Shown here: positions 6,920-31,226 of the stretch, in pieces | Numbering within the stretch: the first letter of the stretch is position 1 | Layout: each line of letters starts with the position of its first letter | Source: a virus | Lineage: Duplodnaviria > Heunggongvirae > Uroviricota > Caudoviricetes | Virus record (IMG/VR): IMGVR_UViG_2534681996_000012 | Strand: one strand, 5' to 3' | DNA length: 39,373 bases | Position numbers and translations under genes: made by a program | The notes under the pieces: model-generated | Databases searched by the model: none | Seen by the model: the letters and a program-made list of their open reading frames with translations, nothing else | Told to the model about the DNA's origin: nothing

Positions 6920-6961
6920 ACCTGTTTTTATTTTATACCTGTAACTTACCGGAGATTAAAG

Positions 6962-8030: not shown

Positions 8031-8036
8031 AAACAA

Positions 8037-8052: not shown

Positions 8053-8053
8053 T

Positions 8054-8065
8054 GTGACATGTCAC
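8054..8065. repeat. 12-bp perfect palindrome GTGACATGTCAC (copy 1), embedding the stop codon of the 8062-8358 gene
   Basis: Identical palindrome recurs at 28286-28297 in the same relationship to a stop codon and a terminator. Confidence 0.7.
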
Positions 8066-8358
8066 GTTCCTTTTCTGAATGATAGCCGTTCGAAAAATGA
8101 TGACATTCCACCGCAGACAATAGCAAAGATGATCCCACCAAAGAAGAGAAGGCCAGCCTGCCACCACTCCCACCGCCATACATCCACAGCGCCAACCATA
8201 CCAACAATCGCTCCAACAAATGGAATATAGCTCACGATGAAAGCAATGGGGGCTGCAATTATCCAGTGCAATCCCCACCATGATTCAAGCCCAGCCATAA
8301 TTGCTGCCAACTGAAAAAGACCAACGACGATATAAACAATGAATCCTATAGCTTGCAT
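8062..8358 (-). CDS. Small integral membrane protein, function unknown
   Basis: ATG 8358 with AGGTGA 5 nt upstream; three hydrophobic helices; lies between the last internal virion gene and the plus-strand accessory island. Confidence 0.5.
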   Translation of the reverse strand: MQAIGFIVYIVVGLFQLAAIMAGLESWWGLHWIIAAPIAFIVSYIPFVGAIVGMVGAVDVWRWEWWQAGLLFFGGIIFAIVCGGMSSFFERLSFRKGT

Positions 8359-8554
8359 GTAGTCACCTAATTTACCCAGTAAAAATAAGAGGCCTCCCCT
8401 CAATAAGGCTTGCAACAAGAACTACTCCCTGCACAACAAAGATGAACCAGCAAATAGCTTGAGTCTGAGGGTTAAGAAAATATTTGTAGCGGTCAATAAA
8501 TAACAATCCACCAGAAATTATCACACTCAAAATAATTAAAAACACAACACTTCC

Positions 8555-11029
8555 TTATTGCGGAGTGACATCCTGTGGTCGCCACCAGTATGTCTGGTTA
8601 AACTCTTTCTTCGAACGTTGCTCCATTTTACGCAAATAACCTGGTGAAAAATACTCCTGCATCTGGTTAAAGATCATGTGATCGAGAGCCGCCTTCAAGT
8701 ACCAGAGATTCGCACCAGGCATCAAACCTTTCCCCAGCTTCACCAGATCACCACCAGTCTGCTCACTCTTCCCTTCCACAGCATTTAACGGTATGCCCTG
8801 AGCAATCTTCACTACATCATCAACCAGACCAGCTACCGGGCCAAGCATCGACGCCAGCGCGCCGCTCCCGTACCTAGTGTGGTCAGAGAAAAGAAAATCA
8901 CCGTACAACCCAGCCCCGCCACCTTTTAAAAATGCATTTATCCAGAATTTAACCATGTGGTCACCGGTCATTTCCTTTGGATTTCTCCCATTAATAAGAT
9001 CAGTAATCTGCATGGAAAGAGCACCAAGCATGGTTGTGCTTGCTAAAAACGTTGCTATATATGCTGCACGCCCACCAGCAGACGGCATACCCATAGCGCG
9101 TGACCAGTGACGCATAACAACCGAGATAGGGAACGATTTAAACAGGAAAACACTTCTCGTTAATTCACCTTTCCATGTTCCACGCTGAAGACCAGACCCT
9201 ACGAACATCTGCTCACGTGCGCCCGGTGTAATAACAGCCATATCAACTTCTTCAGTTACGGCACCGAGCAGTTTACGCATTGCCTCAAATTTCACGCGTT
9301 CAGGCTCACCAAGATGTTTAACTGCTGAATCAGGGATACGCATAATGCTTTCCGGTGTCAGCATCGTATTATTACCGTTCCCCCAGTCCTCCTGTTGCGC
9401 CAACTTCCATACGCTCCAGTCTGTGTCAGTAATCCCTTTGCTTTTCAGGATACGAAAATCAGAGTCATCGAGGCGACGAAGGTCTGGTGTCCGTGACACT
9501 ACTTCTCCCAGGCTTCCCATCATGGTTACGCCATAGGCGCGCTTGTGCGCATCTGACCATGCTGTAAGCCCACTGGCACGCATTACCGCCGTTGCAGCCC
9601 AACGAGACACAGACGGCCCCATATTATCCATCGCCCAGCGGTTAACGCTGCCAAGTAGAGATTCCATCGCCAGGCCAGCGCGGCGCGCCCGCGCAAGCTC
9701 AGTACGGTTCGTTGGGTCCATAGCTTCAAGCTGGTTGCGAAATAACTGGTTCATTGGAAGGTTGGTAACCTTCGCAGACAGATACATGGTTCCAAGATCA
9801 GAGAACGATGACAGCAACGCGGATCCGAGTCTGCTGGCAACCAGCCAGTTGCGGATATTGTCAGACCATCGCGCGATGTGGGGATTCGCTACAGGCTGTG
9901 TTTTTCCGGAAATAAAGTTGTACAAGTTCTCTGTTTTGTTCGCCAGACGCTCGACGCTACCGGTTTTACTCGGGTTAGCTGTTGCCGTTTCTGCCTTAAC
10001 CTGATCAAGAAGGGAGCGGAAAACATGATCGGGGTTTGGACCATATGTTTCCACCAGAGCAATATCTTTACTGATACCTTCCAGGTGACCGACCATGATT
10101 TCCCATAGAGAGCGATCGCCATAAAGTTGCTGATATTGCAGATAGGAATCTGCATCTTTGAAATGTATCTGTCGTGATGCATTACCACGGTTAGCACGTG
10201 CGCCGGAAATTCGCATTCCGGTATCAGTAAGCTTATTCAGCCCACCAGTAGCGATCGTGTTATAAGCCTCTCCAAGAAATGCAGACAACTCGGCATCGTT
10301 CATCAGTTGTCCATCGGCTCGGGTATAATATTTGCGATCCAGCTTACCTATAACATCGCTAACCCATTTATCTTTTGATACCGCCCCAACCTTTTCCATA
10401 GAATGATGTTGAGGGATCCCCCAGTTTTCGAGATAGCCAATGTCCCCACCAGCATCATTAAACCGGCGGCGGAGTAGATCTGTCACTTCTCTCCACGCCT
10501 TAGCACCTTTTCTTGCTTTAGCATTGCCAGTATTTTGCCCTCGCATTTCATATACCAGGTCACGCACGCCCGCTTCATCTTCAAACAGGCCAAAAAAGCG
10601 AGGATCAACTGCTTCGAATGCCTCCTGCAATTGACTCAATGCATAATCACGGGTGGCTTTTGTTCTGGATTCAACAGAGAGGAAATTAGATTTACCGTCT
10701 GCATTAAAAGCAATAGTACGGTTAAGAGCGCCAAGTTTCCCATCAGCCCCTTGATAGCTATTGATAAATTTATCCAATCTCTGACGTGCGGCTATAGTGA
10801 GGGCCACACGACGTTTCTTTAATGCCGCTTCTCGCTGTAATTCTTCAGATGCCAATTGTGCTGCACGATATAGCCGCTCTGATTCGGAAAGTTGTCTCCA
10901 CGACATCGGGTCATCACGAGCAATGGAGCGCATATTTCGATAAATGCGGTCTTCAATGTTCTGTATTTCTCGCGCCGTTAACGTGCGCTGCGCCGCCTGC
11001 TGGACCGCTTGTATACATTCCTGTCTCAT
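8555..11029 (-). CDS. Internal virion (ejection) protein, C-terminal part of a gp16-like module
   Basis: 824 aa; position after the other internal virion proteins and before the tail spike. Confidence 0.55.
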   Translation of the reverse strand: MRQECIQAVQQAAQRTLTAREIQNIEDRIYRNMRSIARDDPMSWRQLSESERLYRAAQLASEELQREAALKKRRVALTIAARQRLDKFINSYQGADGKLGALNRTIAFNADGKSNFLSVESRTKATRDYALSQLQEAFEAVDPRFFGLFEDEAGVRDLVYEMRGQNTGNAKARKGAKAWREVTDLLRRRFNDAGGDIGYLENWGIPQHHSMEKVGAVSKDKWVSDVIGKLDRKYYTRADGQLMNDAELSAFLGEAYNTIATGGLNKLTDTGMRISGARANRGNASRQIHFKDADSYLQYQQLYGDRSLWEIMVGHLEGISKDIALVETYGPNPDHVFRSLLDQVKAETATANPSKTGSVERLANKTENLYNFISGKTQPVANPHIARWSDNIRNWLVASRLGSALLSSFSDLGTMYLSAKVTNLPMNQLFRNQLEAMDPTNRTELARARRAGLAMESLLGSVNRWAMDNMGPSVSRWAATAVMRASGLTAWSDAHKRAYGVTMMGSLGEVVSRTPDLRRLDDSDFRILKSKGITDTDWSVWKLAQQEDWGNGNNTMLTPESIMRIPDSAVKHLGEPERVKFEAMRKLLGAVTEEVDMAVITPGAREQMFVGSGLQRGTWKGELTRSVFLFKSFPISVVMRHWSRAMGMPSAGGRAAYIATFLASTTMLGALSMQITDLINGRNPKEMTGDHMVKFWINAFLKGGGAGLYGDFLFSDHTRYGSGALASMLGPVAGLVDDVVKIAQGIPLNAVEGKSEQTGGDLVKLGKGLMPGANLWYLKAALDHMIFNQMQEYFSPGYLRKMEQRSKKEFNQTYWWRPQDVTPQ

Positions 11030-11034
11030 TTAAT

Positions 11035-12837
11035 TTAACCTCTCAAGAAACACGCCACAGCGACATCAAACAGGCTGGAATCCTGTATTGCCTGCTCACT
11101 TTCCCTGTTCGCTTCATCCAGTACTTCACGCGCGCTGCGCGATTGTGGATTACCATCATCATCCAGCACGGTGATTATCATGTCAGGTGATTCAAGCAGC
11201 GAGTCTTCAGCTATGCGCAGATCAATATCTCCTGCCTGATCCGCCATCATTTTTTGTTCTGCCTGTTGCAATATTTTATCAGGCTCAAAAGGAGCTACTT
11301 CGTCTGGCGTCCTGACCTCTGCTGTTTTATAGAATGAAACAGCCTGAGCATTAAGTTCACTTTCTGCCTGCTGTCTCCGAGCCAGTTCTGCTCGAGCTTC
11401 AAAAAACTGACCGCCAGGCTCATGCGGTGCCAACGCGTTACGAGAAAATTCCAGGCGTTCTTGTGCCTCCCGGATTCGTTGGTCAATATCGCGAAGTCTG
11501 GCCTGTTTATCTGATCGAGCACGAGATAAAGCCTTACCGCTACCGGTTGGCTCTTCTGCAAGAATTTGTGCGCGCTGTTCAGTGAGATTTTCAATAATTC
11601 GTTGGCTATTAGCGATTTCAGACTGGTAAACCTGTCTATCTCCACGCGGCAAAAGCTGCGCGGCCTGTTCTTCAAGCAACCGATTTTCTATAGCGCGCGC
11701 CGTTACTCCATCATCTACAGATGACAGAGCCTCATTAACTGCCTGAGACAGCAGACTCTTGCGCCCAGGAATTTCACTGAAAGATGCAGACTCAACAATG
11801 CTGGCAACGTCTACAGGTCTCCCCTGGCTAACATCAGACATGGCTTTTCGCAGAGCCTGAATGTGCGAATTACGCGAAAGCACGTTGATCGGAACGCCGG
11901 GAGCAATATCAATTTCAGCATGATGAGCGGCATTCGCCGCCAGTGCAGCATCAATATCAACTGGTGAAAAATTTGGTGCGCTTGTAGACTCGCCGCGAGA
12001 GTTAATAAATCTGCCGACACCACCAAACGCCACCCCAAGAACAGCATCAATAGCAATTGCCTGTCGATCCAACACATCATACTGGTTAGCCATTTCGCTA
12101 TAGCCACCATCACGAAGCGTTTTTGCAGTAAGCCCACGCTGTGCCATACCGAACGCAATATTTGTACCTGCGGCATAGGCAATATCTGGCGTTGCACGTA
12201 CTGCTGTTGCTGCGGCGCGTCGCACTGAACTCTCACCCGTCCGCGCAAGCTGAGCCGCCACACCTTCCGCCAGCGCACCACCAGCACGTAACCCGAGGCT
12301 CATAGGGATCAGTGTTCCGGCACCAGCAGTAATGCCCTGCACTAATCCCGCTTCCTGCGCCGTCCTGAAATCAACACCCTGTGCTGTCAGCCGTTCAAAC
12401 TCAGAAAAACCCTGTAGCGAAGTTACCGCCGCCGCACCTCCGACAGGACCACCGAGCGTTGTACCGACAACAGCCTGCCCGCCCATATCGAACAACCCAT
12501 AAAGAACCTGCCCGGCGGTTCCGGTTGTCGCGGCATCAGGCGTCAGCCGCTTAACCTGCTGCTCTGCTAGTTTTCTCTGCTCGGCAATGTATGAAACTGA
12601 AGTATCATTGAGCGAGGTGTTTTCGTTAATAAACTGAGCAATCGGGGATACGATTTTATCCATCCCTGCCCATAGCAACTGATCTGGCTTTGCCACCAGC
12701 CCGGAGTACAAACCAGACAATGCCGCTCCTACAGCATTGTCGAAAAAACCAACATCGCTGTTAAAGCCCGCTGGATTTGATGCTGCTTCGTCAAGTTGCT
12801 GATTCTGGTTTACTGGATTAAGGCCAAAGTAACTCAT
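11035..12837 (-). CDS. Internal virion (ejection) protein
   Basis: 600 aa, Gly/Ala-rich; position in internal-core gene block; start overlaps upstream stop. Confidence 0.55.
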   Translation of the reverse strand: MSYFGLNPVNQNQQLDEAASNPAGFNSDVGFFDNAVGAALSGLYSGLVAKPDQLLWAGMDKIVSPIAQFINENTSLNDTSVSYIAEQRKLAEQQVKRLTPDAATTGTAGQVLYGLFDMGGQAVVGTTLGGPVGGAAAVTSLQGFSEFERLTAQGVDFRTAQEAGLVQGITAGAGTLIPMSLGLRAGGALAEGVAAQLARTGESSVRRAAATAVRATPDIAYAAGTNIAFGMAQRGLTAKTLRDGGYSEMANQYDVLDRQAIAIDAVLGVAFGGVGRFINSRGESTSAPNFSPVDIDAALAANAAHHAEIDIAPGVPINVLSRNSHIQALRKAMSDVSQGRPVDVASIVESASFSEIPGRKSLLSQAVNEALSSVDDGVTARAIENRLLEEQAAQLLPRGDRQVYQSEIANSQRIIENLTEQRAQILAEEPTGSGKALSRARSDKQARLRDIDQRIREAQERLEFSRNALAPHEPGGQFFEARAELARRQQAESELNAQAVSFYKTAEVRTPDEVAPFEPDKILQQAEQKMMADQAGDIDLRIAEDSLLESPDMIITVLDDDGNPQSRSAREVLDEANRESEQAIQDSSLFDVAVACFLRG

Positions 12838-15347
12838 TGCGGAATATCTCCGGAGAATCTCTGACGCTTCTGTGTCAGATCAAGAACAACAGGAGAACCA
12901 TCATCTTTCAGCAGATAACCAGTACCAAGTTTCACCAGGTACTGACTATCGCCGTAACTTTGCAAACCATACTGACCAGGCGGTGTTTTTATCCCGGTGC
13001 CGACCACTTGTTCATTCCAAGCCTGATTAACCTGCTTATCGAATTGCTCTGCAGACATTCCCCACGGCAAAAGGACATTCCCCATTCCGTTATAGTCATG
13101 CACGCCACCTGTAGCTACGTTAACAGCCTGCTTCCAGATATCAGTGTCAATTTCGCCTGATATCACGCCTTTTTTCGCCATCACACCAGCGTAATAGTCC
13201 TTTGCGATCTCGTATGCCATTGATGCCCCCTGAGCATCACCAGCAAATGCATCCTTCACCATGTCAGAAAACTCAAGGCGAAGATCAGCATCTTTAGGCA
13301 TCGGAATACCTTTCGCATCATCAGTACCTTTACGAGCCGCCGCGCCAGTAAGAATTGTCTGCGCAGCGGTTTCAGGAGACACGGAAACATCCGGATTAAA
13401 CCAGTTTTTTTCTGCCAAAATACCACCAGGCTTGTCCATCAGTATCCCGGCAACGGCAGCAGATGGAGCGTTGGCACTGATCTGCTGTAGTGCTGACATA
13501 TACACCTGCCCACCACCAGTGCTCTGCCTGATGGTATCGAGATATGCTGCCTGTTGGGAAACTGGAGCATCACGAAAGAAAACACCGATCTGATTGGCCT
13601 CGTCTTTGGAAAAGAACGTCAGTGGAGTGCCATATGACTTAGCAAGGTCACTGACCTGAGCAGCACGCAAGGCAACGCTCTGTCCAAAGTTATCCTTATT
13701 GCTCATGTCGATAGGCTTTGCCTGTCCGGCGGCAAGAGAGAACTGTACAGGATCAGCCTGTCGCTGCTTTATCACCTGACTTGCAGCCGACACAACGTTG
13801 TCATAAAGAGCGGCTCGTGCCGCATAACCCTCCCCTGTCTCACCAGTATCCGGGCGTAATTGCTCAACATATGCTGTAATGCTGCTTGTCGGCATGTTGC
13901 GGAAAGAGCCTATATACTGTCCGGCGATTTGCGTATTTCTGAACTCGGTATATCGCAGGTTTCCTTCTCTGACTCCATAAGCTGCAATAAAATCAGCCTC
14001 ACCAGGTGGGTTAGGAAATTCAACGCCCCGCATATACGCAGCTGTCGCATCGCGAACCTTGCTGTCAATCATCGTTTTATATTCAGCCTGCTGCTGCCGA
14101 CGCAGTTGATCCGCCTGTCGCATAAAACTTGCCTGCGCCTCAGGAGATGCCGCATCGAATGCTGCATTACCGGTATAGCGTTTGGTGTTGGTTGGAATTG
14201 TTGATAAACCAAGTGCTGCACTGACACCAGCAGTTAACTGCTGATCACTGTATGGCTGGCTACCGTTCTCATGATGGATAATGGCTGCACAAAGCGCCTT
14301 CAGGGTATCAGGATTTGATGCATCGAGAGGCTCATCAGCAGAAACGCCAAGTTGTTCGCACACTGCTTTGATATACGACATAGTGTCATTTTTATCAGTA
14401 GGCGGTGCCCAGCGATTAATTATCTCGCTGACGGTATCAATACCCTGCCGCTGATACGACATCAGGTTCCGCCCTAATGCACGAATCCCGTGTTCAGGTG
14501 TTTCGAATTTAGCAAATCTACCATCATCACCGGTCTGGCCTACCCACGGATTAGTTTTGCTGTATTCGAGATTTCCGGGGTTATTGTTGCGTATGCCACG
14601 GACACGCTCGGAAGAGCCACTATCTGTTACAGCACGGCGAGCTCCAGCAGCAGTATCACTTAACTCGCCATTACTTTGGATGAATGCGGTCGCATTGTTT
14701 GCCGACCACTGGGACAATGCTGCATCAGCAACCTTCTCTTTAAACTCGATTTTCTTGGTCTGTATTTGCTCGTCGCTCCAGCCATGTGCAGCACCGTACT
14801 CCTCAATTTGCTGGAAAGTTTGCTTATTAGCCAATACGTATGCGGCATTGTCGCCATACAATGCTGCGGCATTTTTACCATTGTTCAGCAGCGTCGCCTG
14901 AAACTGACCTTCTTCGTAGGCATTAATTTGCCCTATCTCGTGCCGCCCGGCCTGCGTAGTGAACTGAATGCGCTGCTGCTGCGCCTGCTGCATGAAAGCA
15001 TTACGAGCCTGTTCATCCGGCAGCGACATAGCCAGTTGTTCGACCTGAGCATCAAACTGCTGCGTATACTCATGGCCTTTTCCAATAGCATTTTTCCCTT
15101 TCAGGTTAAGCAAACCTGTTTCAGGGTTATTCAGCAGATCACTGCTTATCTGACTGAGGTTAAGAGATGCCTCCTGAGCCAGAGCGATATTGGCACGCTG
15201 TTTTGCCTGCCCCAAAACATCAATTGCCTCTGTCCCTGCCCGAACAAAAGCATCACCAATACCTGGCTGAGAAAACGTCTGCAAGCCTGCTGACTGAACT
15301 CCACGGCTCTCAACCTGGCGTCCGGATACTGTTGGTACGACTGGCAT
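12834..15347 (-). CDS. Internal virion (ejection) protein, possibly with a muralytic segment
   Basis: ATG 15347 with GGAGG upstream, overlapping upstream stop (TAATG); contains GIRNNNPGNLEYSK...FAKFETPEHGIRALGRNL reminiscent of virion peptidoglycan-hydrolase domains. Confidence 0.55.
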   Translation of the reverse strand: MPVVPTVSGRQVESRGVQSAGLQTFSQPGIGDAFVRAGTEAIDVLGQAKQRANIALAQEASLNLSQISSDLLNNPETGLLNLKGKNAIGKGHEYTQQFDAQVEQLAMSLPDEQARNAFMQQAQQQRIQFTTQAGRHEIGQINAYEEGQFQATLLNNGKNAAALYGDNAAYVLANKQTFQQIEEYGAAHGWSDEQIQTKKIEFKEKVADAALSQWSANNATAFIQSNGELSDTAAGARRAVTDSGSSERVRGIRNNNPGNLEYSKTNPWVGQTGDDGRFAKFETPEHGIRALGRNLMSYQRQGIDTVSEIINRWAPPTDKNDTMSYIKAVCEQLGVSADEPLDASNPDTLKALCAAIIHHENGSQPYSDQQLTAGVSAALGLSTIPTNTKRYTGNAAFDAASPEAQASFMRQADQLRRQQQAEYKTMIDSKVRDATAAYMRGVEFPNPPGEADFIAAYGVREGNLRYTEFRNTQIAGQYIGSFRNMPTSSITAYVEQLRPDTGETGEGYAARAALYDNVVSAASQVIKQRQADPVQFSLAAGQAKPIDMSNKDNFGQSVALRAAQVSDLAKSYGTPLTFFSKDEANQIGVFFRDAPVSQQAAYLDTIRQSTGGGQVYMSALQQISANAPSAAVAGILMDKPGGILAEKNWFNPDVSVSPETAAQTILTGAAARKGTDDAKGIPMPKDADLRLEFSDMVKDAFAGDAQGASMAYEIAKDYYAGVMAKKGVISGEIDTDIWKQAVNVATGGVHDYNGMGNVLLPWGMSAEQFDKQVNQAWNEQVVGTGIKTPPGQYGLQSYGDSQYLVKLGTGYLLKDDGSPVVLDLTQKRQRFSGDIPQ

Positions 15348-15892
15348 TATAATCCTCCGGGTAATCTGGTTCCTGCTGCTGCCCCGATTGGCGCAGGGGT
15401 GCTTTGAGTAAACGGACTCCACGTCCCACCAAACATCTGGTACGCACCGTATGCCTTCAGAGGCGCAGTGAGCAATGTTGTTGCTGCTCCCACATTCCCC
15501 TGTTTACGGGCTGAACTGGCTTCTGCTTTATAGTTGGCAGCCTGAACCTGATAACCGTAAGCCTCGCGTTGCGCGTTATTCACCGTCGTCAGCGAATCAA
15601 GAGCGCCAAACTGAGCAGTGTCACCAAATATATCCAGCGCGTTACCGGTAGATAAATCAGCGCCGGTAGCCCCCATTGTCGCCGCCTGTGTACCAAGCCG
15701 CTGTCGGGTCTCTCTGCGCCGTTGCTCAGCTTCAGCGTTACCCCTGTTTATTGCATCATTTGCCTGAGCTGTGGCTATATCTGCGTTCGCTTCTGCAACC
15801 TTCGAGGCATACTTTCCCTGTTGGTACTGGGTGTATGCCTGAATGCCACTCATGGCGAGCATTGCGCCACCAGCAATAACCGGATCGCACAT
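15347..15892 (-). CDS. Internal virion protein (gp14-like position)
   Basis: 181 aa, Ala/Gly/Gln-rich; position after tail tubular B. Confidence 0.5.
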   Translation of the reverse strand: MCDPVIAGGAMLAMSGIQAYTQYQQGKYASKVAEANADIATAQANDAINRGNAEAEQRRRETRQRLGTQAATMGATGADLSTGNALDIFGDTAQFGALDSLTTVNNAQREAYGYQVQAANYKAEASSARKQGNVGAATTLLTAPLKAYGAYQMFGGTWSPFTQSTPAPIGAAAGTRLPGGL

Positions 15893-19755: not shown

Positions 19756-19766
19756 ATACACTCCTG

Positions 19767-19789
19767 CAATAAAGGGGCCGAAGCCCCTT
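19767..19789 (-). terminator. Intra-operon intrinsic terminator/attenuator
   Basis: On the minus strand GGGGC-TTCG-GCCCC followed by TTTATTG. Confidence 0.55.
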
Positions 19790-19805
19790 GTCTGATCCGC
19801 GAGGC

Positions 19806-20141
19806 TTACACGCCCAGTTCTTTACGCTTATCTGCGATCTTCTCGCGGAGCGTTTCGGCTTTGGCGTTATGGTGTGGCTTCTCGTTAAAGAGCAATTCGT
19901 ACTCTTCACGGAGCTTATCCAGTTCACCATCATCTGACACATCGTTGATGATTTTGGTGCTGATTGCTGCCATTGACACCTTTCCTGCAACTTTTGCTTT
20001 TGCCTGTCTGGCTGCATCGTTAACAGGTTCCAGTGCGCTACCAGGCTCACCTTCGTATTCGATTTCTGCCCCCTCCGGCCACAGAGTGTTATGGATATGA
20101 GAGAGGCGCAGAACGCGGTATCTTGGTTTCTCACCTGACAT
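19806..20141 (-). CDS. Hypothetical protein
   Basis: ATG 20141 with AAGGTGA 5 nt upstream (track start 20150 is GTG). Confidence 0.5.
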   Translation of the reverse strand: MSGEKPRYRVLRLSHIHNTLWPEGAEIEYEGEPGSALEPVNDAARQAKAKVAGKVSMAAISTKIINDVSDDGELDKLREEYELLFNEKPHHNAKAETLREKIADKRKELGV

Positions 20142-20151
20142 CGATATCACC

Positions 20152-20589: not shown

Positions 20590-20604
20590 CTTCTTTCTCC
20601 ATTA

Positions 20605-20624
20605 GTGGGTCTGTTACGACCCAC
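20605..20624 (-). other. 7-bp stem-loop 17 nt downstream of major capsid stop
   Basis: GTGGGTC-N6-GACCCAC; no U-tract, so more likely a processing/stability element than a terminator. Confidence 0.4.
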
Positions 20625-20640
20625 AGGTTAATAACAGGCG

Positions 20641-21633
20641 TTACACCACGCGGGCTTCTGTTTCCAGAAGCGCATCAGTTTCACGGATTGGTACACCACG
20701 GAATGACGTCCACCACTCGCCTTCAGTCTCTTTTACGCTAATCGCCAGAGATGTTTTCTCCAGAGACTGCAAATCAAGAGCCTGGCCTACAGTGCGGTTC
20801 ATGTAGAACACCGGGCGCCCCATGCCACGGTTTGGAATGCGATGCAGTGCTTTAACCATCAACTTCGCAATATTTGCGGCAGAGGAAGGTTCTGAAAGAT
20901 TGCTGACATCGATGTTTGCAATGCGAACAACATAACGCCAGTCACGCAGAGCAAGTCCGTTATCCCATTTGTAATGGGTACGGTAGCCTTCGTACTTGCC
21001 GCCATTAGCATCTTCCAGTGTCACCTGGCCTTTATCTTCCATCTGAATGCCAGCCTTCTGCCCTTTCGGGAAGATGCCATGCACGGTGTTTTCGCCCCAC
21101 ACCACTAACCAGATTGAGGTGTTATCTGTACCCGTGCCACCAGCATCAATGATGTTCTGAGCATTACCTGCAGACAGGCTGGAATAGCGGGAGGACAGTC
21201 CCATAAACTGCTGAGGGTTAACGCTGGAATCACCATAAAACAGCGTCTGCGCCATCTGCTGATTCATCGCTTCAATAAATGCGCGGTCTTCAGACAGGCG
21301 GAATTCGGCGGTATTGCCGTTCAGATCAGCCAGTGACTTATCGACTTCAGCATAGGTTTCCAGCATGCCAACGGAATCGGTTACCTGCACTGTGGTTGAT
21401 TTGCTTGGCTGTACGCCATAGTTCAGCAAACGCCAGGTAGCTGAAGGTAAACCAGAACGAATGGTGGTTCGGTGTCCGGTAGGAAGGTTCCCTTCGACAA
21501 AAGGCATATCCTGAAGGATCGGGTTAGTTTGACCGAGAAGCTCGATAATCTTATCGACTTTCCCGTTTGGATCGACGCGCTTACCCCAGTCAGCCAGCGT
21601 TAGCGCAGTTAAGCCTTTAACAGCCATTGTCAT
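20641..21633 (-). CDS. Major capsid protein
   Basis: 330 aa directly after scaffold gene; GAGAGGAA RBS (the second ATG at 21627 is better spaced). Confidence 0.75.
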   Translation of the reverse strand: MTMAVKGLTALTLADWGKRVDPNGKVDKIIELLGQTNPILQDMPFVEGNLPTGHRTTIRSGLPSATWRLLNYGVQPSKSTTVQVTDSVGMLETYAEVDKSLADLNGNTAEFRLSEDRAFIEAMNQQMAQTLFYGDSSVNPQQFMGLSSRYSSLSAGNAQNIIDAGGTGTDNTSIWLVVWGENTVHGIFPKGQKAGIQMEDKGQVTLEDANGGKYEGYRTHYKWDNGLALRDWRYVVRIANIDVSNLSEPSSAANIAKLMVKALHRIPNRGMGRPVFYMNRTVGQALDLQSLEKTSLAISVKETEGEWWTSFRGVPIRETDALLETEARVV

Positions 21634-21641
21634 TTCCTCTC

Positions 21642-22337
21642 TTATTTGCCATAGAGCACTTCGGCCGCACTACGCTGGCCTTCATTACCACCGGTGACCA
21701 TGCCATCTTCAGACATCGCCTTTCCGATTTTCACGAACGTTTTGACCAGATCAGGGTGATTACCCAGCCCGGTGGTGTTCAGATATTCTTTGAGTTCAGG
21801 TGTCCCGAACTGGTCAAGCGCACGCTGTGCGGCGCTAAGGTTAGAAATCAACTTGTCGCCACCGATTTCTTTGTCAGCTTTTACATCCGCAGCCCACTGC
21901 TCGGTTGTTTTCTGCCAGGCTTCTGCCTGGCGCTGCTGAACACCTGCCAGAATCTTCGGATAAGCATCAACCAGCTTTTGCGCTTGCTCGTTGGTCAGGT
22001 TAAGTTCTCGCGCCACCGGCTCGAATTCCTTCAACGCTTCTGTATCCAGCTCTACGCCTTCGGCAGCCTGAAACTCGTACTTCTCAGGCGCACCCTCTGG
22101 TTTATCGCCGTCCTTTTTTTCATCCTGCTTATCGTTTTCAGGCTTTTTGTCATCAGCAGGTTTATCGCCATCAGCAACAGGTTGTGGCTTATCACCTTCC
22201 TGTTGTGATGGATCACCAACTGGAGCAGGGTTATCACCTGCAGGCGCTGACGGTTCTGACGCAGCCGGAGCTGCTCCACCATCGACTGGTTGCTCATTGC
22301 AAAGACGGCGATACAGCAAACGCTCAAATAAATTCAT
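21642..22337 (-). CDS. Scaffolding protein
   Basis: ATG 22337 with AGGAG 5 nt upstream (track start 22343 is GTG); acidic Pro/Ala/Asp/Lys-rich low-complexity N-half, helical C-half; between portal and capsid. Confidence 0.65.
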   Translation of the reverse strand: MNLFERLLYRRLCNEQPVDGGAAPAASEPSAPAGDNPAPVGDPSQQEGDKPQPVADGDKPADDKKPENDKQDEKKDGDKPEGAPEKYEFQAAEGVELDTEALKEFEPVARELNLTNEQAQKLVDAYPKILAGVQQRQAEAWQKTTEQWAADVKADKEIGGDKLISNLSAAQRALDQFGTPELKEYLNTTGLGNHPDLVKTFVKIGKAMSEDGMVTGGNEGQRSAAEVLYGK

Positions 22338-22339
22338 GA

Positions 22340-22636
22340 TCACTCCTGTTCACTGGCCTCTTTGGCCATCTTCAAATACTGTTCAGGGCAATGCGCCATA
22401 ACGCGCTGAAACAGTTCCAGCGCCAGATTGCGTTGCCCCTCATTAAATGCCATTGCCATAGCATCCATCGGAGAGATAGCGGAAAACACCCGGCCTTTCT
22501 CCAGCACAGACCAGACAACGCGACGCCCATGTTCACTGCTCATGACAAAGCGAATGTCATCAATTTCACGCTGTGCCATGTCACGTTGCTTACGGGCGTT
22601 TTCTTCTTTCAGTTGATCGTCTTCGTAATCTGTCAT
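22340..22636 (-). CDS. Hypothetical 98-aa protein between portal and scaffold
   Basis: Overlaps portal stop and scaffold RBS. Confidence 0.5.
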   Translation of the reverse strand: MTDYEDDQLKEENARKQRDMAQREIDDIRFVMSSEHGRRVVWSVLEKGRVFSAISPMDAMAMAFNEGQRNLALELFQRVMAHCPEQYLKMAKEASEQE

Positions 22637-24312
22637 TGTGATTGCCCACCCTGACCACTAACTACATTCGCCATAGCTGACAAAACACTCGGATCCGAAG
22701 TTTTAGCTTCGCTTAGCGTTTTGGCACCCTGTGCCGCCGCCATCCCCATCGCCATCATTTGTTGCTGCTGTTGCTGCTGTGCCCGTTGCTGGCGAGCCTG
22801 CTCAACCTGTTCCTGCGGAACAATGACGGTTGGAGACACTCCGGACATATCAGCGAATGCATCGATCGCCTGATCAACGTTGAGTTTGTCGAGAGCTTCT
22901 GGTTTCGCTTGCGCAAGTTGACCAATGAAGTTAACCGTGGACGCCAGACTGGACAGGCCGATAGACTTCTGCGCCTGAGCCATGACGGAAATGTATTCGA
23001 CCTTCAGGGGCATACCTTCCATCGCGTCAGGCGGTGGCGGCAGCATGTTTTTACGCACCATCATCGAGAAAGCGCGGTCAATGAGAGGGTTAAGACATTC
23101 GTCGTTCAGACGCTCCAGAACCGGCCCCAACATCAGAAGCTTTTCTTCTTTCATTTCGATCACTGCTTCAACAGGCATCGAGCGGGTATTGATGTTCTGC
23201 AACATCATGAACAGATCGACAAAGTAGGCGCTGTTAATGATTTGGCGGGTGTCCTGAATGTCTGCTACCAGATCTGCTGTACTGGGGTTAACCAGATAAG
23301 CAGGCCTGAAACCATCCTGACCAGTAATCTGATCGATATACGTGATGTCGCCAGGAAGAAGAGAGGCGCGCTGATTCTTGAGGGAAGTCGGAGCAACCAT
23401 CGGCGGATTGGTGGCTTTATCAATCAACTGCGACTTGCGCTTCTGGAGAAGCTGCAATGCCTTAACAGGTCCAAGCGCCAGCATACCCGGGCATGATGAT
23501 CCATAAACATCTTCGCCGTTAACTTCCCAGCGCGGAGCCATAATTGGAAACTCATCGAATCCGGACTCACGCAACAACTTGTCGTTATCGCCGCCAACCT
23601 CGTAATAAACCGATTTGAATGGCTTGTTCTTGCTATCCAGCTTCGATGTATCGCGGTCAATGTTCGGGTAAACCGAATGCATAACTTCAATCCACTTCTC
23701 GTAGGTGCCGCTTTCCCACATGCTTTTTACGGATTCGCTGACGTTATTTAGCCCGAACTCCTGAACAAGCTGACGAACAGTCATAGAGAACTTGCGAAAA
23801 CAGGTGTCCACACTGCCACGAGGTGAGTTAGCCAGGTAGTAACTGCCTATCGGGAATGGCATTGTGCGAATGATGTCCTCGTCATCCTCCAGCACCGCCA
23901 TTGCACCAGTGCTGTATGTACCGAGGCTTCCGTATAACTGCGGCAGCGACTGGTAGAGATTCGACTTATTGAACATATCGTTCATACGGTTCTGCACCGC
24001 CTCAAGCCACAACTTAACAGGTCCATAATCCATCATTTCAGGATCTGGCGTAGCCAGGCGAAACCACGGACGCGCTGGGCTTGTGATGCCTGACATCATG
24101 CCGCTGGCGAGAGTGCGCGCCGCCATAGTCCCGGTCGAATCAATAATGCGTGTATTGCGTCGATCGTTACGGTTGACCTCAGAAGTCAGAAAGCGGGAAC
24201 CACGCGGGTTGATGTAATCACTCAACTCGCGCCAGTGCGGCTCGAACGACTGACGCTCGCTTTCAAGTTGTGCGAACTGTTTGTTCAATCGCTCTTTAGT
24301 TGTTTCCGCCAT
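22633..24312 (-). CDS. Portal (head-to-tail connector) protein
   Basis: 559 aa; GGAG RBS; Gln/Ala/Met-rich C-terminal tail as in T7 gp8; located between terminase and scaffold. Confidence 0.8.
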   Translation of the reverse strand: MAETTKERLNKQFAQLESERQSFEPHWRELSDYINPRGSRFLTSEVNRNDRRNTRIIDSTGTMAARTLASGMMSGITSPARPWFRLATPDPEMMDYGPVKLWLEAVQNRMNDMFNKSNLYQSLPQLYGSLGTYSTGAMAVLEDDEDIIRTMPFPIGSYYLANSPRGSVDTCFRKFSMTVRQLVQEFGLNNVSESVKSMWESGTYEKWIEVMHSVYPNIDRDTSKLDSKNKPFKSVYYEVGGDNDKLLRESGFDEFPIMAPRWEVNGEDVYGSSCPGMLALGPVKALQLLQKRKSQLIDKATNPPMVAPTSLKNQRASLLPGDITYIDQITGQDGFRPAYLVNPSTADLVADIQDTRQIINSAYFVDLFMMLQNINTRSMPVEAVIEMKEEKLLMLGPVLERLNDECLNPLIDRAFSMMVRKNMLPPPPDAMEGMPLKVEYISVMAQAQKSIGLSSLASTVNFIGQLAQAKPEALDKLNVDQAIDAFADMSGVSPTVIVPQEQVEQARQQRAQQQQQQQMMAMGMAAAQGAKTLSEAKTSDPSVLSAMANVVSGQGGQSQ

Positions 24313-24326
24313 TTCAATGACTCCGG

Positions 24327-24533
24327 TTACTGACCAAGCAGCGTTTTACCGCTGGTATTAGCGGTTGATGTGTCGCCCTGAGAACCGGTAAGCAGCGTAG
24401 AACTACGACCAGCAGCAGCGCGACGGCGACGTGTTTCTTCGTCGCGGGCATCAACAACGGCGGCATCCTGCTCCTGTGGTGCTGCCTGAACTTCTGGTGT
24501 TGCAGGCACTGATGGTGAGCTACCCATGCACAT
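24327..24533 (-). CDS. Hypothetical small protein upstream of portal
   Basis: ATG 24533 with GGAG 9 nt upstream; its translation-initiation region TCAATGACTCCG is duplicated in front of the portal ATG. Confidence 0.4.
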   Translation of the reverse strand: MCMGSSPSVPATPEVQAAPQEQDAAVVDARDEETRRRRAAAGRSSTLLTGSQGDTSTANTSGKTLLGQ

Positions 24534-24623
24534 ATCAATGACTCCGTACGCAATTAAATTATTACCAATTTAACCACATATGATTTATTTATCGTAGACA
24601 GTTGACATTTAACGCACGAATTA

Positions 24624-24638
24624 TTACCTTTCAGGTAA
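24624..24638 (+). promoter_or_regulatory. Operator-like palindrome TTACC-TTTCA-GGTAA downstream of a TTGACA hexamer
   Basis: TTGACA at 24602-24607; palindrome sits where a -10 element would be; upstream of tRNA-Arg. Confidence 0.5.
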
Positions 24639-24960
24639 CCAAAGAGTTCATTCCGGTTACTAACCTGACTGGCTTGTCGTTAAATTGAACAGGTGGAGTG
24701 AGCTTTTATTTTGAGCAGTACGGCGTATGGCACATGCGCCGATAGCGGTCTGGATACGTTTAAGGGGCACCCTCCCTTGCTCGGGCAAACGAACCAGGTA
24801 GCCGGAATGTGCAAGTCGAGCGGTTTTATTCCGCGCACGGGGATTCACCATCCCGGCGATTCGGTGTGACGCCTCGGAAGAGACGAGGGTACAACGATGA
24901 GAGCATTTATGGAGCCGCGACAAAGTGTGGCGCCTTAACAGGCTAAGTGCTCTCAGCGTT

Positions 24961-25037
24961 GTGGCATTAGCTCAGTTGGACAGAGCAACCGCCTTCTAAG
25001 CGGTTGGTCGCAGGTTCGAATCCTGCATGCCACGCCA
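24961..25037 (+). tRNA. tRNA-Arg (anticodon UCU)
   Basis: Cloverleaf folds by hand: acceptor GTGGCAT/ATGCCAC, D-stem GCTC/GAGC, anticodon stem ACCGC/GCGGT with loop CTTCTAA, T-arm GCAGG-TTCGAAT-CCTGC, discriminator G and encoded CCA. Confidence 0.85.
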
Positions 25038-25200
25038 GAATCACACCTGAGGACCGTGATGCCAGAAGTTCCAGGGGCTTGGCGGTGATGGTTTCCCTTG
25101 AAGGACTACCACCGCCCTTTTTACAGCAGGACGCCATTGCGATGACTTCATGCTGTAAACCAGTACAGCCACGGAAGGCGGAACTCATTGCTTCCAGTTC

Positions 25201-25225
25201 GCCCGGTTCGTCCGGGCATTTTTTT
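25201..25225 (+). terminator. Rho-independent terminator downstream of the tRNA
   Basis: GCCCGG-TTCGT-CCGGGC followed by ATTTTTTT. Confidence 0.75.
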
Positions 25226-25230
25226 GCCTG

Positions 25231-25259
25231 ATGACCACAAATTACCTTAAAGGTATAAT
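25231..25259 (+). promoter_or_regulatory. Sigma70-like promoter (ATGACC-17-TATAAT) overlapped by operator-like TTACC-TTAAA-GGTAT
   Basis: Perfect -10 TATAAT at 25254-25259; operator variant at 25242-25256. Confidence 0.55.
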
Positions 25260-25284
25260 CATGAAAAACTTTAAGGTAATTAGT

Positions 25285-26109
25285 ATGTTCGAATCGTTCA
25301 AAGAGCTGTTTTTATCTACTGCCAATACTGCCGTGCATCGAGCTAAAAACCCTGTGCTTGGTGCTTTTGTTATGTCCTGGTGCGCCTTCAACTGGAAATC
25401 ACTTCTTTATCTATTTTTTAGCAAATCAAATATAATAGATAAAATTTCATACATCTCAGATAACAGCACATGGAAAACTGTTATGTTTTATCCATGCTTA
25501 TCTGTAATTACTATCTGCTGCCTATTACCATGGGTAAACAATATCATTAACGTATGGCAAGCAAAGCCTCTTGATAATAATGACTCAATCGAAAATCACC
25601 GGAAGGCAAGAAAAATACAACGTGAAACACGGCTACAGAGATTGCTGGCTAAAAAAGACATTACTTACGAAAAAGTAAAAACAGGCGCTGAAAAAAACAT
25701 TCAAGACATGAAAGAGGAAATAATTCTTTCAAAAGACAGAATGGGACAACTCACATCTGAATTGAAAGAGAGGGAGACAGAACTGCGCGCAGAACAAGCT
25801 CGTATTTTAGAATTATCTAAGGTTATTGATGAAACAACATCTAAACTAGAAAATCTAGAAAAAGCTCACAAAAATTTAAAAAACGAATATGAGTCCTATA
25901 AGAAAAACATTCCTTTGGCAACAAATAATACAATTGCTAATGGGCTTGTAGGTCTAAAATCATTACAAGACCTTAATGAGTCCGTAAAGAAACTTGGCGT
26001 TACTGGAATTAACAATCCAGAAATCAATACATTATTGAATAATCCTCTAGTAAATATAAATGGTGGTTTAAATTCCACCTATCAAAGAAAATTAAAAACA
26101 CAAAAGTAA
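25285..26109 (+). CDS. AT-rich accessory protein: two N-terminal TM helices plus long C-terminal coiled coil
   Basis: ATG 25285 with AAGGT 7 nt upstream (track start 25231 lies upstream of the predicted promoter); hydrophobic segments VLGAFVMSWCAFNWKSLLYLFF and VMFYPCLSVITICCLLPW; K/E-rich heptad-like C-half; stop 3 nt from the convergent terL stop. Confidence 0.55.
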   Translation: MFESFKELFLSTANTAVHRAKNPVLGAFVMSWCAFNWKSLLYLFFSKSNIIDKISYISDNSTWKTVMFYPCLSVITICCLLPWVNNIINVWQAKPLDNNDSIENHRKARKIQRETRLQRLLAKKDITYEKVKTGAEKNIQDMKEEIILSKDRMGQLTSELKERETELRAEQARILELSKVIDETTSKLENLEKAHKNLKNEYESYKKNIPLATNNTIANGLVGLKSLQDLNESVKKLGVTGINNPEINTLLNNPLVNINGGLNSTYQRKLKTQK

Positions 26110-26112
26110 AAA

Positions 26113-27582
26113 TCATTCAAATGGGTCATAGTCTGTTATAGCCCTGCCCTGCTGCTGCCGTGGGTCATTAGTTTTCTTGGCTACCGGGAAAGCAAACGTC
26201 AGCAGTAGCGCATCGCCTTTACCCGGCGAACGCCCAAGCCGCTCTTTGATATCTTCCTTCGGTTCGATAACGATTTTACCGTCCACACGAACTTTGTACT
26301 CTGCCGCCGACAGGTCATCCGCTGTTTCCTGGTCATCCAGCATCCCGCCGAGCCTCAGCCATGTCTTGCATGAGTTGAACATCTCCCCGCGCTTGTTAAG
26401 CATCTGCGGGTCAGTAGACGCGCCACCGAACGGAACAAGTTGCCATGTACGGCCCCAGCCATCACCGATTGACTTCAGACCGGTTCCGTAACCGAAGTCG
26501 ATGAACACCGCGTCAGCCTGATACTGGTCTTCAAAGTCAGCGATACGCTTCGCCATAATCAGATCGTCGGTGGTCTTGTTACCAGTCCATAGCACCTTAC
26601 TGTGCAGCCCCTGCCGCAGGTATATCACAGCGTCATCAACGCCGGAGTATGCCGGGTCAACGCCGATTATCACCGGAGCATGTGCCACCTGCGCAGCGGT
26701 GACCACCCGTTTCATTGCCTCGTCAGTAAGTCCGGTAGGGATAAACTGCAATTCAGATGCATCCGGGAATATGCCGCGCACACGGATTTTAACGAAGTCG
26801 CTGTCTTCCCCGTAGTCATCAACCCATTTCTGCAACTGCTGTTTGTTGGTGCCTTCCACCGTCCGGCTGTCAATCTGCGCAGTTTTCCAGCGGTGTTTAT
26901 ATTTGCGGAAACATTCGCGGAAACGCCCGGTGTTACGTGTAGGGTTTCCGAACGCCACCCAGATAATCTCAGTGTCTTCGTCCGTTAGCGCCCCCTCAGC
27001 AACTTCCCACACCAGATCCGCAATGTTCGACGCTTCATCGAATACCACGATGATGCGTTTGCGCTCGTTGTGTAGTCCGGCGAATGCCTCAGTGTTGTGC
27101 TCAGACCAGGGGATTGCGTCAGCTCGCCACCGCTTGTCGTGCCCAGGATCATTGCTGTACATCGCGGTAGCGGTACAGGTAAACCAGTCTTTCGTGATAG
27201 CAAGGTTCGACCACTTGATAATTTCCGGCCAGGTCTTCGTTCGTAGCTGGTTGTCGGTGTTGGCGGTCACCACGACCTTACAATCCTCGCAAGTGGACAT
27301 GCCCCAGTTGATCAGCATTGAGATGAATGCGGATTTACCAATACCGTGACCAGAAGCGCGTGCCAGCATAAGCGGCTGATAGCGCGTCTCTGGATTCTGC
27401 AGGTGATCACGTATCTCTCGGAACGCATCAGCCTGCCACTGACGTGGGCCGGTAGCATGTGCCAGTTCAGTCCCCTCTTCCCCCCACGGGAACGCATAGA
27501 GGGCATAGCCAAGCGGATCGTGAGTGAACCCTGCAATATCCTCGATCAACTGCTCTTCAGGAGATAACGCTGTATCTGTCAC
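26113..27582 (-). CDS. Terminase large subunit
   Basis: 489 aa; P-loop-like SGHGIGKS; C-terminal nuclease-like region VIIGVDPAYSGVDD; overlaps small-subunit gene by 4 nt. Confidence 0.9.
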   Translation of the reverse strand: MTDTALSPEEQLIEDIAGFTHDPLGYALYAFPWGEEGTELAHATGPRQWQADAFREIRDHLQNPETRYQPLMLARASGHGIGKSAFISMLINWGMSTCEDCKVVVTANTDNQLRTKTWPEIIKWSNLAITKDWFTCTATAMYSNDPGHDKRWRADAIPWSEHNTEAFAGLHNERKRIIVVFDEASNIADLVWEVAEGALTDEDTEIIWVAFGNPTRNTGRFRECFRKYKHRWKTAQIDSRTVEGTNKQQLQKWVDDYGEDSDFVKIRVRGIFPDASELQFIPTGLTDEAMKRVVTAAQVAHAPVIIGVDPAYSGVDDAVIYLRQGLHSKVLWTGNKTTDDLIMAKRIADFEDQYQADAVFIDFGYGTGLKSIGDGWGRTWQLVPFGGASTDPQMLNKRGEMFNSCKTWLRLGGMLDDQETADDLSAAEYKVRVDGKIVIEPKEDIKERLGRSPGKGDALLLTFAFPVAKKTNDPRQQQGRAITDYDPFE

Positions 27583-28172
27583 TGATTACCATCCTGACGT
27601 TCTTTGAGTCGCTTCCTGGCTGCTGCTATGCGATCAGCAATTGTCACATTCACATTAACATCCAGACGTTCTTTGAACGCGTTGACATCAACATGCTTAC
27701 CAATCAGCTCAAGGTTCTTCACCTTGTCAGGCCATTTAATTTTTTTGAGGATTGTCTCTATCGAATCCTCGTTCATGTTCATGATGGTCGATGACAGATC
27801 AAAGCCACTAAGCGTAGTGCGCCAGATTTTCGGCCACTCACGGATTGGTTTAAGGCTCCCATCGTCGTTGAGGATGTCGATCACGTCCATCTGGTCGATC
27901 TCCACCAGGCGCATGAGAACGTAATCAGCACTGACGCGCATTCGTTTGTTGCGCTCCTCCATCAACTCGGCAATCCGTTTTTGAATGCGTTCATCGCGCA
28001 TCATGACACTGGCTTTAACTGCCGCTGTATTTGGGGAGAATCCTGCGTTAATCGCTGCCTGAGTCTGGTTTTCAGGCGTTTTGATGTATGACTGGCAATA
28101 AGCCTCCTGCATTGCTGTTAGTGGCTTAAATTGCGTTGATTTGCGTTTATAGGTTTTAGGTTCAGCAGGCAT
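27579..28172 (-). CDS. Terminase small subunit
   Basis: Basic N-terminal region; ATG 28172 with GGTGG 5 nt upstream; track start 28253 is TTG and would place a terminator hairpin inside the ORF. Confidence 0.6.
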   Translation of the reverse strand: MPAEPKTYKRKSTQFKPLTAMQEAYCQSYIKTPENQTQAAINAGFSPNTAAVKASVMMRDERIQKRIAELMEERNKRMRVSADYVLMRLVEIDQMDVIDILNDDGSLKPIREWPKIWRTTLSGFDLSSTIMNMNEDSIETILKKIKWPDKVKNLELIGKHVDVNAFKERLDVNVNVTIADRIAAARKRLKERQDGNQ

Positions 28173-28182
28173 CATAACCACC

Positions 28183-28214
28183 GTGGTAATAGTTACCGTT
28201 GTGGTAATAGTACC
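28183..28214 (-). promoter_or_regulatory. Tandem direct repeats GTGGTAATAGT(T)ACC just upstream of the terS RBS
   Basis: Two copies 18 bp apart, each containing GGTAA-TAG-T(T)ACC; sit between a terminator and the first late gene. Confidence 0.4.
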
Positions 28215-28217
28215 ATG

Positions 28218-28244
28218 CAAAATAAAGCCGCCATAGTTGGCGGC
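28218..28244 (-). terminator. Intrinsic terminator upstream of the late (packaging) operon
   Basis: On the minus strand GCCGCCA-ACTA-TGGCGGC followed by TTTATTTT. Confidence 0.65.
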
Positions 28245-28285
28245 AGTATTCAAAACCCATCAAATTCATCATGCATAATCTACTC

Positions 28286-28297
28286 GTGACATGTCAC
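28286..28297. repeat. 12-bp perfect palindrome GTGACATGTCAC (copy 2), embedding the stop codon of the 28294-28635 gene
   Basis: Same palindrome as 8054-8065; TGA stop occupies the same positions within it. Confidence 0.7.
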
Positions 28298-31223: not shown

Positions 31224-31226
31224 GAT

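Follow-up and report, generated by a model that had tools for sequence, protein, structure and literature searches.

The prophage sequence IMGVR_UViG_2534681996_000012 (39,373 nucleotides, the whole of which is referred to below as the window) contains two exact copies of the 12-bp palindrome GTGACATGTCAC, at positions 8054-8065 and 28286-28297, and raises the question of why the stop codons of two unrelated genes should be embedded in one and the same short symmetric sequence. The window represents a Uetakevirus prophage, from the group of phiV10 and epsilon15, whose late genes are encoded on the minus strand. According to the original prediction, the palindrome would be a recognition site for an antiterminator or late activator, or else a recombination site at module boundaries. 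Judged by sequence comparison, the palindrome of the window is one instance of a conserved cis-element of the general form (Y)GTGAC-NN-GTCAC(R), which accompanies a small cysteine-rich protein in several phage lineages; together they point to an undescribed regulator-site pair with an unusual placement. In the searchable literature, neither the 12-mer nor its variants were found in a phage context. We consider it probable, although far from certain, that the palindrome is the cognate double-stranded DNA site of the cysteine-rich protein and modulates transcription at the boundaries of transcription units.

The palindrome in the window

Read on the minus strand, both copies have the form G-TGA-CATGTCAC, and positions 9-11 of the palindrome (TCA on the plus strand; 8062-8064 and 28294-28296) provide the TGA stop of a minus-strand open reading frame (ORF) in each case, in agreement with what had been noticed initially. 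The terminators reported near both copies were likewise recovered, each as a minus-strand hairpin followed by a T-run 3' of the palindrome, 1 nt and 41 nt away (Table 1). The palindrome is not itself part of a terminator hairpin, since it is separate from both stems, and no T-run of its own follows directly after it. The chance expectation of 0.002 that had been given for the repeat is valid for one pre-chosen 12-mer but was set post hoc; when the window was simulated with a first-order Markov model, 9 of 400 sequences (~2%) had a repeat of some 12-bp palindrome. The relaxed pattern GTGACNNGTCAC occurs in the window twice against 0.08 expected, a count reached in 0 of 100 shuffles. The case for a non-random element is therefore based on the comparative data and not on the within-window count. 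A copy with one mismatch, GTGCCATGTCAC, lies at 22573-22584 inside a small gene (22340-22636). This variant recurs in phiV10 at the homologous position (5306) but is missing from epsilon15 and Tyrion, and the similarity is probably inherited chance.

Conservation at the junctions of related phages

A search for the palindrome at module junctions of related prophages had been proposed as a check, and the 12-mer is indeed present at homologous junctions in phages of four host genera, represented by E. coli, Salmonella, Enterobacter and Klebsiella, with flanks that are almost wholly different between genera (Table 1). Of 78 complete related IMG/VR loci that cover the copy-1 junction, 74 carry the unaltered 12-mer there and the other 4 a version with a single mismatch; the terminator always begins 1 nt further. 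This constant pair is preceded by at least four unrelated genes, whose stop codons lie inside the palindrome in two cases and 6 or 10 nt upstream of it in the two others, and at least three sequence classes follow the terminator on its 3' side. The sequence after the Cys-rich gene falls into at least two classes, and in 21 related loci a gene of ~70 aa sits exactly between the palindrome and the terminator. A third recurrent copy, on the terL side, is approached by at least eight unrelated convergent cassettes, in each of which the stop codon lies 4 nt from the palindrome; the corresponding terminator of phiV10 scores only on the strand of the convergent gene. Thus, all three Uetakevirus sites have the same order of ORF stop, palindrome and intrinsic terminator in the direction of the gene that ends there, on either strand. 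This order is found also in a Yersinia phage, in locus L197 and upstream of the N15 terminator Ta. The distance between site and terminator ranges from 1 nt to ~250 nt.

The window has no terL-side copy. Its terL is abutted instead by a 292-aa ORF (25231-26109, plus strand; GC content 0.33-0.36) with no family match, at a place where relatives carry the terminator, the third palindrome and the convergent cassette, and this ORF looks like a recent foreign insertion or replacement. In BUCT711, a plus-strand gene is similarly placed and the terL-side palindrome is likewise missing. A potential fourth site at the Rz stop, which has 1-2 mismatches in SPN9TCW and epsilon15 and is absent from the window, phiV10 and Tyrion, was treated as chance or decay. 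The phiV10 record starts inside the palindrome, but it was merely opened after the p55 stop, and a cos or pac site or genome end is ruled out by the presence of three sites per genome, 2 kb and 17 kb apart, and by the 7 kb that separate the N15 site from cos.

Co-occurrence with a cysteine-rich protein in other phage lineages

A tblastn search with the 112-aa Cys-rich protein, whose gene ends in copy 2, identified homologs with 30-41% identity in N15, phiKO2 and P2-like Yersinia, Vibrio and Aeromonas phages. It is the only ORF of the window with homologs in N15, the Yersinia P2-like phage, Vibrio phage K308 and the Aeromonas phage, and in N15, Yersinia vB_YenM_56.17, K308 and the Aeromonas phage the homologous gene lies within an early block that precedes the late genes. 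Motif and homolog are found together in at least five unrelated phage lineages, and the stop codon of the homolog is usually part of the motif: the gp46 stop of N15 lies in GTGACTGGTCAC and that of the vB_YenM_56.17 homolog in TGTGACGCGTCACA. In K308, GTGACACGTCAC is found ~230 nt downstream of the homolog, and further copies precede terS by 20 nt and another gene by 19 nt.

The pattern GTGAC-N2-GTCAC is enriched more than 50-fold around the homologs, and its density is near expectation outside the recurrent sites. N15-like loci (883 kb) contain 105 copies against 0.84 expected, one of them at the homolog stop in 49 of 49 loci; P2-like loci (937 kb) contain 58 against 0.89, with the homolog stop occupied in 48 of 57; and prophages of 28 bacterial species (510 kb) contain 39 against 0.49, the stop being embedded in 20 of the 28. 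Three more of these species have a TAA stop followed by the motif 5-9 nt later, which argues for selection on the site and not on the stop codon. Across lineages the half-sites are invariant and the centre differs (AT, TG/CA, GC, AC/CC). The part of the original prediction that took the palindrome for a recognition site thus holds in so far as co-occurrence, stop embedding and recurrence in at least five lineages link a real element to the Cys-rich protein; that the protein is generally a late switch does not follow, as discussed below.

Other copies, too, lie elsewhere than at the homolog stop. Aeromonas phage 14AhydR10PP has three identical copies of an asymmetric variant, GTGACCGGACAC, at 251, 3032 and 29428, each ~12 nt upstream of a start codon and followed by a Shine-Dalgarno sequence and ATG; one of these starts is that of the homolog itself. 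The first two copies share a longer unit, CAAAY-GTGACCGGACAC-GARRGGTTAAAT. In N15, the motif occurs at 28550-28561, ~115 nt upstream of terminator Ta in the region of the antirepressor gene immA and within CCCCGTGACCAGTCACGGGG, and at 33237-33248 inside the 5' part of repA; both copies are kept in N15-like prophages. The 12 nt of the repA-internal copy are invariant in 19 distinct contexts, and neighbouring third codon positions vary. PY54, which has repA in common with N15, encodes no homolog of the protein and lacks the motif, and reads RVSVW where the motif-containing codons of N15 repA read RVTSH. These placements suggest that N15 gp46 may have a role in the control of plasmid-prophage replication and anti-immunity. 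A 'gp46', possibly the homolog, is among the nine phage proteins detected in the proteome of a Klebsiella telomere-phage lysogen (PMC12042878).

The cysteine-rich protein

The Cys-rich neighbour of copy 2 had been described as a 113-aa candidate regulator. It does adjoin the palindrome, but the gene most likely starts with the ATG at 28632 and not at 28635 (28294-28635 as listed), which makes the protein 112 aa long. No significant Pfam, NCBIfam or PDB match was found for it, profile search included. The family comprises ~1,000 clusters at 90% identity, from podo-, myo- and siphovirus prophages of Enterobacteriaceae, Yersinia, Vibrio and Aeromonas, and is labelled in PHROGs (phrog_536) as a transcriptional regulator. 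The alignment has four invariant cysteines (C79, C82, C91 and C99), invariant arginines at positions 8, 13, 43 and 47, and an Arg-rich N-terminus. A second profile search of the protein database returned close relatives only and yielded no deeper alignment for modelling.

In the AlphaFold (AF2) model, helices are predicted at residues 5-18, 30-43 and 52-67, with a coil at 19-29. The resulting order of extended segment, helix and helix over residues 19-67 of this weak model resembles that of the ribbon-helix-helix repressors Arc, Mnt, CopG and omega, which are likewise small proteins with short palindromic sites, and there is a weak NCBIfam match to the CopG-like LexA-regulated protein YbfE (E = 0.05). 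In contrast to these repressors, the residues of the would-be DNA-facing strand are not conserved in the family although the half-site is, and an extra C-terminal Cys4 cluster is present.

Proposed role at the ends of transcription units

From the conservation, enrichment, co-occurrence and geometry described above we infer that the Cys-rich protein binds the palindrome, that its target is duplex DNA and not RNA, and that its effect is directed as follows. The protein would bind, probably as a dimer, where the early operon closes with the protein's own gene and where the structural operon ends; relatives would offer it a further target at which the convergent accessory gene by terL ends. The layout of ORF stop, site and terminator suggests an action on transcription at unit ends, and the direction we favour is that the bound protein blocks RNA polymerase at the site and so would insulate neighbouring units from each other. 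At its own gene, such a block would leave the mRNA truncated ahead of the stop codon, resulting in negative feedback. Blocking is favoured because the late units have repressor-controlled promoters of their own (see below), because one of the sites faces an accessory gene, readthrough of which would yield RNA antisense to terL, and because separate late regulators are annotated in N15-like and P2-like carriers (a Q-like protein and, in the P2-like phage, a small regulator gene after gpD that is Ogr-like by position). As for the target, the palindrome folds as RNA at -1.2 kcal/mol, no better than shuffled sequences, and the combination of invariant half-sites with a free centre is the usual pattern of a dimeric DNA binder; recognition of duplex DNA is thus considerably more probable than recognition of RNA.

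Roadblock operators inside genes or at their ends include the PurR operator in purB, lac O2 in lacZ and the cre sites of CcpA. As in these systems, a palindrome for a dimeric regulator would be located within a transcribed region and not at a promoter, and would be expected to stop elongation. Here, however, the site is systematically placed at the 3' end, over the stop codon of the regulator's own gene and before a terminator, and the predicted binder belongs to an uncharacterised family.

Several observations weigh against the reading proposed here. If the site did no more than block transcription, placing it ahead of a terminator would be redundant, and the geometry suits the loading of an antitermination factor just as well. 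The motif of Vibrio K308 and of the Aeromonas phage is positioned 12-20 nt upstream of start codons with no terminator after it, and the asymmetric Aeromonas variant has one orientation in all three copies; this placement could point to a role at the level of RNA or translation. On the side of the protein, no DNA-binding domain is recognisable in it and a Foldseek search with the AlphaFold model gives nothing; the model is weak (mean pLDDT of 62.6), with a poorly defined Cys-rich tail, and hhalign comparisons with Arc, Mnt, CopG, MetJ, omega and ParG score no better than controls. Finally, the lineage samples are phylogenetically clustered and represent approximately five independent lineages, not hundreds.

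A bolder version of the roadblock reading, which we offer tentatively as the less probable outcome, is that the pair represents a widespread and undescribed class of small phage regulators with the operator in their own stop codon. Polymerase halted before the stop would then produce a non-stop message and feedback through ribosome rescue; copies before terminators might serve as switchable gates of early, late and accessory units, insulating or opening them on demand, and the copies of N15-type plasmid prophages would act on repA and the antirepressor operon. An operator over the regulator's own stop codon would be an unusual design, of use for synthetic circuits.

If the pairing of protein and site is correct, an orphan protein family gains a testable function together with an exact target sequence. 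The epsilon15/phiV10 group, which includes O157 typing and serotype-converting phages, would have a second layer of control beyond repressor and antirepressor; the ZX5 paper covers the repressor, antirepressor and integrase only. The arrangement also hints at how transcription units and accessory cassettes stay apart in compact mosaic genomes.

Alternative explanations

In the strongest alternative, which we still regard as unlikely, the protein loads onto elongating RNA polymerase at the palindrome and the polymerase then reads through the following terminator, recruitment occurring via the duplex or via a small hairpin of the non-template strand as at the ops sites of RfaH. Early transcripts would be extended into terS-terL, and late transcripts past the structural operon toward the tailspike and lysis genes. 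The site is indeed promoter-proximal to the terminator at the three Uetakevirus sites, in the Yersinia phage, in L197 and at N15 immA, and the gene closes the early region immediately ahead of the late genes, the place of lambda Q. The likeness to Q and to RfaH-ops extends to a regulator gene located directly upstream of its site and of the terminator preceding the late genes (28244-28227 before terS), and to a 12-nt element within the transcribed region, the length that ops also has. Against this, there is no homology to Q or RfaH/NusG and no match to the Q family, no conserved promoter or pause signal surrounds the site, which does not lie between the -35 and -10 of a conserved late promoter, and there are several sites per genome, one of which faces an accessory gene. 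Readthrough is unneeded where terS, gp3 and the tailspike gene each have their own repressor-controlled promoter region, and at the terL site it would extend a transcript of the convergent accessory gene into antisense terL RNA; the spacing between site and terminator is variable, and the N15-like and P2-like carriers are already provided with late regulators.

An N/nut type of antitermination is disfavoured in particular. In lambda, the cro stop is followed by the nut site and tR1, and boxB is a stable RNA hairpin with a co-varying stem. The succession of gene end, element and terminator is shared with lambda nutR/N, and both N and HK022 Nun are, like the Cys-rich protein, small factors (~110 aa) with an Arg-rich N-terminus. 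Here, in contrast, the hairpin is marginal and equals shuffles, the half-sites do not change from one lineage to another, and in the Aeromonas variant a pair is broken. The sites are located where operons end and not close to promoters, and nothing resembling boxA was found with the palindrome.

A second alternative, which appears rather improbable, is that GUGAC-NN-GUCAC acts as an RNA element or host-factor site that flags intercistronic or 3' positions for processing, for the control of translation or for an effect on stability. The connection with the protein would then be indirect, or the protein would bind RNA through its Arg-rich N-terminus and Cys4 cluster, as Mu Com or lambda N do. 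Every site does lie in a transcribed intercistronic or 3' region; in N15-like, Vibrio, Aeromonas and some Uetakevirus loci the motif is directly 5' of a Shine-Dalgarno sequence and ATG, and the single orientation of the three asymmetric Aeromonas copies and the invariant R8 and R13 of the N-terminus would be in keeping with RNA binding. However, the predicted hairpin is marginal, an invariant stem with a variable centre is the reverse of what is usual in protein-recognised RNA hairpins, the stem pair broken in the Aeromonas variant is not compensated, and no start codon lies downstream at two of the three Uetakevirus sites. The host-factor boxes of CRP, FNR and LexA and the symmetric lac operator GTGAGCGCTCAC misfit in spacing or centre; these were not tested further.

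It is very unlikely that the palindrome is a linker or crossover site, a short shared sequence kept for the swapping of cassettes with no role in expression. This possibility derives from the fact that homology between relatives ends exactly at the palindrome, with several classes of cassettes at each junction, in phages that encode RecE/RecT-type recombinases. Short conserved regulatory islands that flank interchangeable genes and match mosaic breakpoints are also known as the PeSLs of T4-type phages and the boundary sequences of lambdoid phages. Unlike the PeSLs, which combine a promoter and a stem-loop, the island here consists of a palindrome and a terminator and is tied to one protein family across unrelated phages. 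A boundary role alone fails to explain why the motif follows one small protein into unrelated genomes, at the stop of that same gene, or why it is conserved inside the coding sequence of N15-like repA, where there is no cassette boundary. Moreover, no site-specific recombinase is associated with the palindrome, and 12 bases is little sequence for an exchange driven by homology, the adjoining terminator providing the larger part of the shared island. The module-boundary proposal was therefore right about the location of the palindrome, exactly at breakpoints, and probably wrong about a dedicated recombination site. The mosaic breakpoints are probably a by-product, because the 12-mer and the terminator make up 30-45 bp of identical sequence amid cassettes that are diverged or unrelated, and recombination products break there; this would explain why mosaic joints in these phages fall at one fixed 12-mer.

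Chance repetition, with which the simulated frequency of repeated 12-bp palindromes would be compatible, is refuted by the exact 12-mer at homologous sites across genera and by the ~100-fold enrichment of the motif around homologs in other phage lineages, and its probability is negligible.

Gene boundaries, repressor operators and neighbouring features

Copy 1 ends the long structural operon and faces a convergent plus-strand accessory block that includes a Bro-N antirepressor-like gene, and copy 2 separates the last gene of the early-right operon (p55 in phiV10, gp49 in epsilon15) from terS. The gene that ends in copy 1 is most likely 8062-8358, encoding a membrane protein of 98 aa, and not 8062-8418 as listed. 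A terminator is annotated in the phiV10 record at the place homologous to 8026-8053, and the terminator at 28217-28244 is kept in epsilon15, Tyrion and SPN9TCW. The listed terS ORF starts with TTG at 28253, as it does in the phiV10 annotation, and crosses this terminator and two repressor operators; the Pfam terminase match begins only at residue 45. For these reasons, the true start of terS is probably the ATGATG at ~28175.

Table 1. Features at the two palindrome copies of the window and positions of the 12-mer in related phages
Sequence	Feature	Position	Strand	Remarks
Window	Palindrome copy 1	8054..8065		Contains stop 8062-8064 of the late-operon membrane-protein gene; 1 nt upstream (minus strand) of terminator
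Window	Palindrome copy 2	28286..28297		Contains stop 28294-28296 of the gene for the Cys-rich 112-aa protein
Window	Small membrane-protein gene (MQAIGF...FRKGT)	8062..8358	-	Stop in copy 1; one of at least four interchangeable genes at this place
Window	Intrinsic terminator	8026..8053	-	Stem 8053-8036, T-run tail TGTTTTTAAC; ends structural-gene operon
Window	Gene for Cys-rich 112-aa protein	28294..28632	-	Last gene of early-right operon; phiV10 p55/epsilon15 gp49/N15 gp46 family; phrog_536
Window	Eight-codon remnant of ~70-aa gene (ATGCATGATGAATTTGATGGGTTTTGA; MHDEFDGF*)	28250..28276	-	From comparison with 21 related loci
Window	Intrinsic terminator	28217..28244	-	Stem 28244-28227, T-run tail TTTATTTTGC; between early operon and terS
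Window	Two repressor operators	28174-28190, 28192-28208	-	Downstream of terminator, upstream of terS
epsilon15	12-mer	terL side 2142; structural operon end 19517; Cys-rich gene stop 39612		Exact
Tyrion	12-mer	terL side 2702; structural operon end 20377; Cys-rich gene stop 41755		Exact
SPN9TCW	12-mer	terL side 2174; structural operon end 19663; Cys-rich gene stop 38658		Exact
phiV10	12-mer	terL side 2262; structural operon end 19493; Cys-rich gene stop 39101		One mismatch at 39101
BUCT711	12-mer	terL side none found; structural operon end 18526; Cys-rich gene stop 431		Exact

The prophage-repressor operator, ATTACC-N5-GGTAAT, has 10 matches in the window against 0.05 expected, distributed over 5488-5504, 6904-6920, 24623-24639, 28174-28208, 31226-31304, 33619-33635 and 34331-34409, and the same sites are annotated as repressor binding sites in the epsilon15 record NC_004775. 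Beyond the immunity region, operators are located upstream of terS, of the portal unit, of the tailspike gene and of one plus-strand accessory gene, so that the late units look directly repressed in the lysogen. The palindrome shares with these operators its symmetry and the presence of several copies per genome near late units, but differs in sequence and positions. It does not match ATTACC-N5-GGTAAT, and none of the ten operators coincides with it; it is therefore ruled out as an operator of the prophage repressor and represents a separate class of sites.

Copy 2 had also been placed in the spacer of a promoter-like sequence. This could not be sustained: epsilon15, Tyrion, SPN9TCW and BUCT711 show no conserved -35/-10 pair at this place, the matches in the window are weak, and no -10-like element is found at the other two Uetakevirus palindrome sites. 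The likely terS promoter is instead an extended -10-like sequence downstream of the terminator, TGgTACTAT at 28207-28215, which overlaps the first of the two operators there and has a counterpart, TGnTACTAT, in epsilon15. Together with the operators it overlaps (28174..28215) it forms a probable terS promoter, and the terS unit thus appears to have a repressor-controlled promoter of its own. The distance from the palindrome to this probable promoter is ~72 nt in epsilon15 and ~89 nt in the window, and ~186 nt more where the 70-aa gene is present.

A conserved sequence, CATATGTGGTT...GGTAATA(A/G)AAT, lies between the repressor operator and the start of both the portal unit and the tailspike gene (approximately 24560-24600 and 5410-5450 on the minus strand of the window, and 2990-3030 and 19960-20000 in epsilon15), and could be a late promoter or leader element. 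A LexA-box-like sequence, AACTGTATATTTATACAGTA, at ~5539-5560 separates the tailspike gene from the divergent plus-strand genes (5566-5838 and 5999-6838, the latter with the Bro-N domain), an arrangement consistent with an antirepressor operon under SOS control. The accessory block that converges on the late operon includes a 170-aa ORF (7275-7787, plus strand) whose YafO-toxin-like match in Pfam is weak (E = 0.00095) and falls short of the curated cut-off.

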